Positions 44,999 through 45,084 of a stretch of DNA of 64,000 nucleotides are shown here, in pieces. The stretch spans positions 1,553,831 to 1,617,830 of the forward strand of contig NW_019217785.1 of assembly GCF_002571385.2 (NCBI RefSeq), read 5' to 3'. The position numbers were made by a program, and so were the translations under genes. A model generated the notes under the pieces. It was not told the DNA's origin and searched no databases. It saw only the letters and a list, made by a program, of their open reading frames with translations. The DNA comes from Stylophora pistillata. Lineage: Eukaryota. The first letter of the stretch is position 1, and every line of letters starts with the position of its first letter.

Positions 44999-45084
44999 TG
45001 TAAAGCAAAGTTTTATTGCCTCCAACTTATGAATGTCCCACAACATAGGATTTTATCAAAAGTCTTCATGATCCTTGCTTCACA
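44999..45084 (-). promoter_or_regulatory. SECIS element candidate (type II) in the 3' UTR of the C18orf32 homolog
   Basis: On the minus strand: helix I UGUGAAGCAAGG/CUUUGCUUUACA, core AUGAA...GGAG, helix II GACUUUUGA/UCAUAAGUU, unpaired AAAA, apical mini-helix UCCUA/UGGGA. It starts about 60 nt after the TAG. Confidence 0.8.

Follow-up and report, generated by a model that had tools for sequence, protein, structure and literature searches.

Which gene, if any, does a SECIS-like hairpin in the coral Stylophora pistillata serve, and does the AAUAAA inside its internal loop also end the mRNA? The hairpin lies in a 64,000-nucleotide stretch of genomic DNA, here called the window, and was described in the initial annotation as a type II SECIS with a slightly non-standard core and an embedded poly(A) signal. 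Sequence comparison assigns this SECIS to the coral DUF4512/C18orf32 gene and makes it very likely that it recodes the UGA at codon 3; the product would be a membrane selenoprotein of 74 residues with a likely redox centre in its N-terminal UxxC. The interest of the locus lies in this upstream UGA gene, not in a poly(A) signal inside the SECIS.

All the parts listed for the hairpin, namely a 12-bp helix I, AUGA, a 9-bp helix II with one U-U pair, AAAA starting 11 nt 3′ of AUGA, a 5-bp apical helix and GGAG as the 3′ side of the core, are present on the minus strand (Table 1); the initial annotation named no strand. The fold has a predicted energy of -24.4 kcal/mol (z -3.52) and is matched in stability by 0 of 200 shuffles. 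A plus-strand hairpin was rejected, as 44990-45095 folds like its own shuffles (z -0.72). The published core consensus is UGAN/KGAW, in which only UGA and GA are invariant and W belongs to the class kept in at least 70% of cases (PMC2647825; PMC3753652). The GGAG of the window departs from KGAW at W alone; the 3′ core is UGAU in five of the six orthologues and UGAG in the coral relative L025. Calling the core non-standard was correct in that GGAG lies off KGAW, but the departure is minor and, W not being a defining position, does not make the core unusual. It may tune efficiency, because sequences flanking the core do so (PMC2761289). A comparison within the same genome yielded SECIS candidates behind only one of five GPx stretches and so gives no local frequency of GAG cores.

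Table 1. Features of the coral DUF4512 gene and its 3′ hairpin, in window coordinates.
Feature	Position	Strand	Basis
Exon 1: about 73-nt 5′ UTR without AUG, then 47 codons; AUG at 46774	46634..46847	minus	RNA reads
In-frame UGA, codon 3, M-V-U-I-S-C (UxxC)	46766..46768	minus	opposite the first Cys, invariant in DUF4512
Putative coding stem-loop, SRE/ISL-like	46721..46753	minus	9-bp core, 46753-46745 with 46729-46721
Intron, 1405 nt, GT-AG, phase 0	45229..46633	minus	junction reads
Coding part of exon 2: 27 codons, then UAG stop	45145..45228	minus	reads; match to database protein P0002
3′ UTR as far as the probable main end	44880..45144	minus	RNA depth
Type II SECIS hairpin	44999..45084	minus	direct reading, folding, covariance model, helix II covariation in 7 orthologues
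Helix I (two G-U)	45084-45073 with 45010-44999	minus	
SECIS AUGA core	45069-45066	minus	
Helix II	45064-45056 with 45032-45024	minus	
AAAA	45054-45051	minus	
Apical helix III	45050-45046 with 45040-45036	minus	
SECIS 3′ core GGAG	45023-45020 (GA at 45022-45021)	minus	
Internal-loop AAUAAA (3′ side), not the main poly(A) signal	45017-45012	minus	read depth; conservation
Candidate poly(A) signal AAUUAA	44926-44921	minus	

Across the seven orthologous SECIS, window included, only AUGA, AAA and GA are invariant, and the AUGA/GA tandem with its 5′ purine is kept in all seven. Helix II covaries: 91.4% of its cells are paired, with two-sided changes in 8 of 10 pairs, against 30-54% in slid alignments and likewise far lower values in shuffled controls. 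A covariance model built from the six orthologous SECIS without the window, a training set that includes L025, a close relative of the window gene, finds the hairpin at 37 bits (E 4e-5), and the next-best place in the 64-kb window scores 13.7 bits. With the same model no Cys locus does better than E 4.2, a comparison biased by construction. Rfam SECIS_1 (RF00031; gathering score 35 bits) does not detect the window hairpin at E<=10. No candidate scored in this genome reaches its cut-off, the best standing at 31.6 bits, and it scores three of the six orthologous SECIS at 22.8-27.5 bits, all below the cut-off. The best RF00031 match in the genome, L010 (G000:C292:122620-122682), is a canonical-looking SECIS with AUGAU/UGAU. 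As far as the type II SECIS is described in the available text (Rfam RF00031; PMC2647825), the coral hairpin shares with it the AUGA/GA core, the G-Y first pair, helices I-III, the As at 11 nt and the 3′ UTR site; it differs in the G for W at the last core position (in L025 too), in the sub-Rfam score and in the chance AAUAAA of the loop. The hairpin is an ordinary type II SECIS, for which SBP2 binding and recoding are predicted.

A spliced, expressed gene of two exons begins 1.7 kb upstream of the hairpin on the same strand. Its RNA 5′ ends fall at 46830-46854. Three runs of one study contain the junction 46634-45228 in 156, 93 and 166 reads, respectively, and a contig of a second study spans it as well. 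Other 3′ exons were rejected, the reads supporting only 45228 of the candidate acceptors; a single contig of low depth links 45228 with 46001. The predicted product of 74 aa has a Lys third from its end. It scores 40.3 bits against Pfam DUF4512 (PF14975; cut-off 27), taken here to be the C18orf32/UPF0729 family. The sole match in the genome to this protein and to DUF4512 carries TGA, with no Cys paralogue. The genome also has tRNA-Sec (77.8 bits, two loci) and a TGA inside five of eight GPx matches. In the spliced mRNA the SECIS core lies 75 nt past the stop and about 290 nt past the UGA, beyond the reported minimum UGA-to-SECIS distance of 51-111 nt (PMC3753652). Position, covariation and a linked gene with an in-frame UGA, a gene absent from the initial annotation, together support the type II SECIS.

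Several neighbouring features were noted in the window. The intron holds a palindromic, high-copy, MITE-like repeat at about 45340-45620, with a hairpin of about 130 bp at roughly 45445-45577, which draws many reads from other copies; Rfam matches to miRNA families at 45445-45577 were rejected as this palindromic repeat, far under their cut-offs. A PUB-domain gene on the plus strand (47000-47406) and the DUF4512 gene lie head to head, less than 300 bp apart, and likely share a promoter. An ADAMTS-like gene with TSP1 and PLAC domains (37000-45340, plus strand, stop at 43153) appears to have a 3′ UTR that runs antisense to the SECIS and exon 2, with about 8-14% of the read depth there; plus-strand AATAAA motifs occur at 45237 and 45357. 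Further away, nine equal-scoring tRNA-Thr(AGT) genes at 13674-15635, spaced at 247 bp with seven on the minus and two on the plus strand, are a tandem array with an internal inversion, and a tRNA-Ser lies at 9905.

Orthologues were sought among metagenome loci with a degenerate pattern that admits any TGN at codon 3, C3/U3 and C6 being fixed by the pattern. In the 58 loci found, codon 3 is TGA in 12, TGC in 33, TGT in 13 (46 Cys loci) and TGG in none. UGA is common to nine distinct TGA sequences; the differences among TGA loci fall mostly at third positions of the UGA frame, and all five coding differences between L025 and the window are synonymous. L014, L027 and L028 exceed the Pfam DUF4512 cut-off and L054 stays below it (23.1 bits). 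Most complete family members carry a Lys at the third position from the end. All 17 near protein matches start downstream of the UGA position, and a Porites lobata protein in a close cluster has a mis-predicted N-terminus.

The complete-gene set comprises 32 of the 58 loci, 30 taken by rule (at least 69 aa, Lys third from the end) and the spliced L025 and L054 by hand, with 26 excluded. Within 1 kb of the stop, the SECIS pattern occurs in 6/6 complete TGA genes versus 1/26 complete Cys genes (Fisher p 8e-6, with pattern thresholds loosened after L014 had been seen and with loci that are related and not independent). Among the Cys genes only L042 has a SECIS-like match, which was set aside as chance because it is missing in the relative L043. 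A stricter first pass, reaching up to 8 kb, gave matches in 6 of 13 TGA sequences, counting that of the window, and in 3 of 46 Cys loci, those three lying more than 5 kb away. Six of the 12 TGA loci are without a SECIS, and exon 2 was found in none of these six. In one of them, L038, the TGA exon 1 is followed at 0.7-2.2 kb past the start codon by pieces of two other genes; near-identical to L025, it yet has neither exon 2 nor SECIS in 2.2 kb downstream, a layout that may reflect nested genes, a long intron or misassembly. As expected of a selenoprotein, the UGA stands opposite the Cys of its homologues and is conserved across species, and among complete genes the SECIS goes with the UGA forms and not with the Cys forms.

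In a tree of 44 rows and 36 columns, where the window shares its row with an identical sequence and sequences shorter than 30 aa are left out, the TGA rows fall into one supported group with four Cys rows, and one change is found in 56% of bootstrap trees; the tree is too weak to show how often, or in which direction, Sec and Cys were exchanged. The nearest named relatives of CCDC124, the neighbour of L054, are clusters from Amphimedon and Dysidea (58-60%), with vertebrates and octocoral at 52-55%, which weakly suggests that L054 is sponge-like. Cys-form DUF4512 with a C-terminal glutaredoxin domain was seen at L022:1646-2122 (minus), L052:83-559 (plus) and L059:452-928 (minus), in two distinct lineages, the fused domains of L022 and L059 lying above the Pfam cut-off; these fusions are a possible redox link for DUF4512. 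A truncated member of this animal family, P0065 (UniRef100_UPI00397F3C33), is labelled Salmonella sp. in UniRef, likely through contamination or mislabelling.

The UGA might instead be a true stop, the locus being a pseudogene, a start-stop regulatory RNA or a message translated from an out-of-frame AUG at +5. An out-of-frame ORF of 44 codons does start there in the window, and codon 3 is an extreme place for a recoded UGA, but in six loci this ORF either shrinks to 15-27 codons or lacks the AUG, while purifying selection acts on the UGA frame, the UGA itself is kept in nine distinct sequences, the SECIS is coupled to it and the genome has no Cys copy to fall back on; we regard a true stop as extremely unlikely. 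Reading of the UGA as Trp or Cys, by ordinary readthrough, editing or a variant code, is barely credible. W does stand at position 3 in six database proteins (P0023, P0038, P0043, P0053, P0064 and P0066), but P0053 and P0064 match L028 and L038, whose DNA reads TGA, so the W is a gene-calling artefact (UGA=Trp) and Trp at this position was rejected. Trp or Cys readthrough would moreover need no SECIS, TGG is found at none of the 58 loci, and at a read depth of about 100-220 the UGA position has no variant or edited letter among the matches listed.

The preferred reading of the UGA as Sec also receives support from the coding sequence that follows it. A putative stem-loop begins 12 nt 3′ of the UGA, and its third positions are nearly fixed, whereas most other third positions vary. 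Compared with synonymous shuffles, excess folding (z<-2) is found in seven of the nine distinct TGA sequences and in 1 of 39 Cys sequences; no excess was seen after the UGA in L014 and L054. L054 retains 7/9 stem pairs with three two-sided changes, and none of the Cys sequences rises above 7/9. The stem is thus conserved just 3′ of the predicted Sec UGA, as an SRE would be, with a weak signal in L014. Going by the available text on SELENOP (PMC5727441), it resembles the SRE and initiation stem-loop of that gene as a conserved coding stem just 3′ of the UGA and a few codons past the AUG, and is unlike them in that here a single stem would serve as both, because the UGA is codon 3. By this analogy the coding stem is a putative recoding aid.

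Taken with the SECIS, these patterns make Sec insertion at codon 3 through the SECIS, with help from the stem, very likely. SBP2 and eEFSec at the SECIS would deliver Sec-tRNA at the second elongation step, and the conserved stem would slow the ribosome. Failed insertion would leave only Met-Val, and output would be strictly selenium-dependent, because the UGA frame has no second AUG. Sec insertion can depend on position, which counts against recoding at codon 3. The earliest natural Sec found in the literature covered is at position 9, in SelW of Euplotes (PMC3737529); position 3 would be earlier still.

The modelled structure of residues 1-47 consists of one helix (4-28) and no strands, with pLDDT 86-87 over residues 1-20 and a tail of low confidence, and hydropathy peaks at residues 2-20. 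The UxxC would then cap the N-terminus of a hydrophobic helix at the membrane surface, and the Lys third from the end recalls an ER-retrieval signal. Where Sec and Cys replace each other in a CxxC, the Cys is usually redox-active, and thioredoxin-type motifs likewise place a CxxC-type site at a helix N-terminus. At the membrane of the ER or of lipid droplets, Sec3 and Cys6 would switch back and forth between the selenol/thiol and selenenylsulfide states, as the human Cys pair would, and we lean slightly towards such a redox role. In a somewhat improbable alternative the protein is a selenoprotein, but Sec3 and Cys6 serve for acylation or metal binding, or cap a lipid-droplet anchor structurally. 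The absence of a thioredoxin fold around the UxxC (a single helix in the model, no Pfam match) favours this alternative, as does the possibility that DUF4512 is only an anchor in the glutaredoxin fusions; the known roles of human C18orf32 also rest on its helix and tail (PMC12797721), but both the usual meaning of a Sec/Cys exchange and the site of the UxxC at the helix N-terminus speak for the redox role.

The second question concerns the mRNA 3′ end. The initial annotation observed correctly that an AAUAAA lies inside the 3′ internal loop with no other shortly downstream; the next on the minus strand after 45012 comes only at 43653. From this it was proposed that the loop motif may be the poly(A) signal, in which case the mRNA would end just past helix I and 3′ processing could affect the integrity of the SECIS. 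The loop AAUAAA is indeed the sole canonical one within 1.3 kb and is predicted to be unpaired, though its occurrence is not beyond chance, 8% of the 86-nt stretches of the window holding one. A poly(A) cut is made 10-30 nt downstream of its signal, and here it would spare nearly all of helix I. Most transcripts do not end at that distance. From 45020 to 44880 on the minus strand, depth in 20-nt bins runs 289, 231, 216, 215, 187, 161, 114 and 66 in run X22 and 251, 202, 191, 178, 145, 118, 85 and 69 in run X24. In both runs of raw reads it drops by about 20% at 45020, but at 44960-44999, past the expected cut site, it still amounts to 85% and 73% of the gene body, and only then ramps down towards 44900, to a plateau at 44880-44899. 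Contigs from two poly(A) libraries pass through the site unbroken, from 45228 to 44764 and to 44654. No tailed loose ends are listed anywhere in 44640-45235.

The motif is not conserved either, being missing from this loop in all six orthologous SECIS (0/6). An AAUAAA occurs 120-124 nt past the AUGA in L028 and L030 and 198 nt past it in L025. In the SECIS of L027 (L027:92-180, minus strand), which lies 706 nt past the stop, the apical A-run is itself an AAUAAA, yet the contig extends 163 nt beyond the AUGA. An embedded signal that ends the mRNA after helix I is therefore very unlikely as the main end, and the loop AAUAAA is incidental. The depth step of about 20% at 45020 leaves room there for a minor end, about a fifth at most. 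The main end probably lies near 44900, about 100 nt beyond helix I, and AAUUAA is its candidate poly(A) signal. About 26% of the depth continues beyond the main end, to 44400 or further; for such read-through transcripts of 44400-44880 on the minus strand, the AAUAAA at 43653 is a candidate distal end. Among the literature titles available, none on an overlap of SECIS and poly(A) signal was found; SELENOP is known to have alternative 3′ ends whose use removes a SECIS (PMC5133445).

SELENOK and SELENOS are small ER membrane selenoproteins. The coral gene shares with known animal selenoproteins the UGA-SECIS logic, the existence of Sec and Cys orthologues and the form of a small membrane protein with a disordered tail, and differs from them in that Sec stands at residue 3 before the helix, not near the C-terminus, and in that the UxxC lacks a thioredoxin fold. 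With C18orf32/UPF0729 it has in common the Pfam match, the length (74 versus 76 aa), an N-terminal hydrophobic and amphipathic helix and a disordered tail; the first Cys of the CxxC is UGA in the coral gene, to which a SECIS and a coding stem are added. Human C18orf32 resides in the ER and was found in the same screen as SELENOT, on GPI inositol deacylation (PMC5800811), and it binds lipid droplets through residues 7-37 (PMC12797721; 10.64898/2025.12.23.696201); these sources assign no role to its cysteines, and the word 'cysteine' has no match in the available text of the latter two. MSP, of algae and Dictyostelium, is likewise a predicted membrane selenoprotein, but its description, as available, gives two Sec and unicellular eukaryotes only (PMC2375036), which sets it apart from the coral gene with one Sec in an animal host.

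In open-licence PMC and bioRxiv literature, no Sec form of C18orf32, UPF0729 or DUF4512 was found. The family is missing from the 21 selenoprotein families tabulated for six invertebrates, Nematostella and Amphimedon among them (PMC3473315, Table 1), from the text of 10.1101/2025.05.29.656587 and from two of the three supplements of PMC3753652. It is very probable, as judged by sequence, that the coral gene is a selenoprotein of a family without a described Sec form in the literature covered. The list of animal selenoprotein families has been treated as nearly closed, and present surveys look for known families only (10.1101/2025.05.29.656587).

In a wider and tentative reading, which may well prove wrong, DUF4512/C18orf32 would be an ancient selenoprotein family, with Sec in corals and other early-branching animals (L054 being sponge-like) and Cys in bilaterians. 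Its members would be minimal membrane redox catalysts without a thioredoxin fold, Sec would enter at the second elongation step with one stem acting in both initiation and recoding, and Cys3 of the human protein would be catalytic in GPI-anchor processing and lipid-droplet handling. If the Sec reading of the coral gene is true, it would provide a natural case of UGA recoding directly after initiation, and coral and probably sponge annotations of the DUF4512 gene would be wrong. It would also point to the matching Cys in human C18orf32 as a likely site of redox chemistry, which offers a testable biochemical hypothesis for the human protein.
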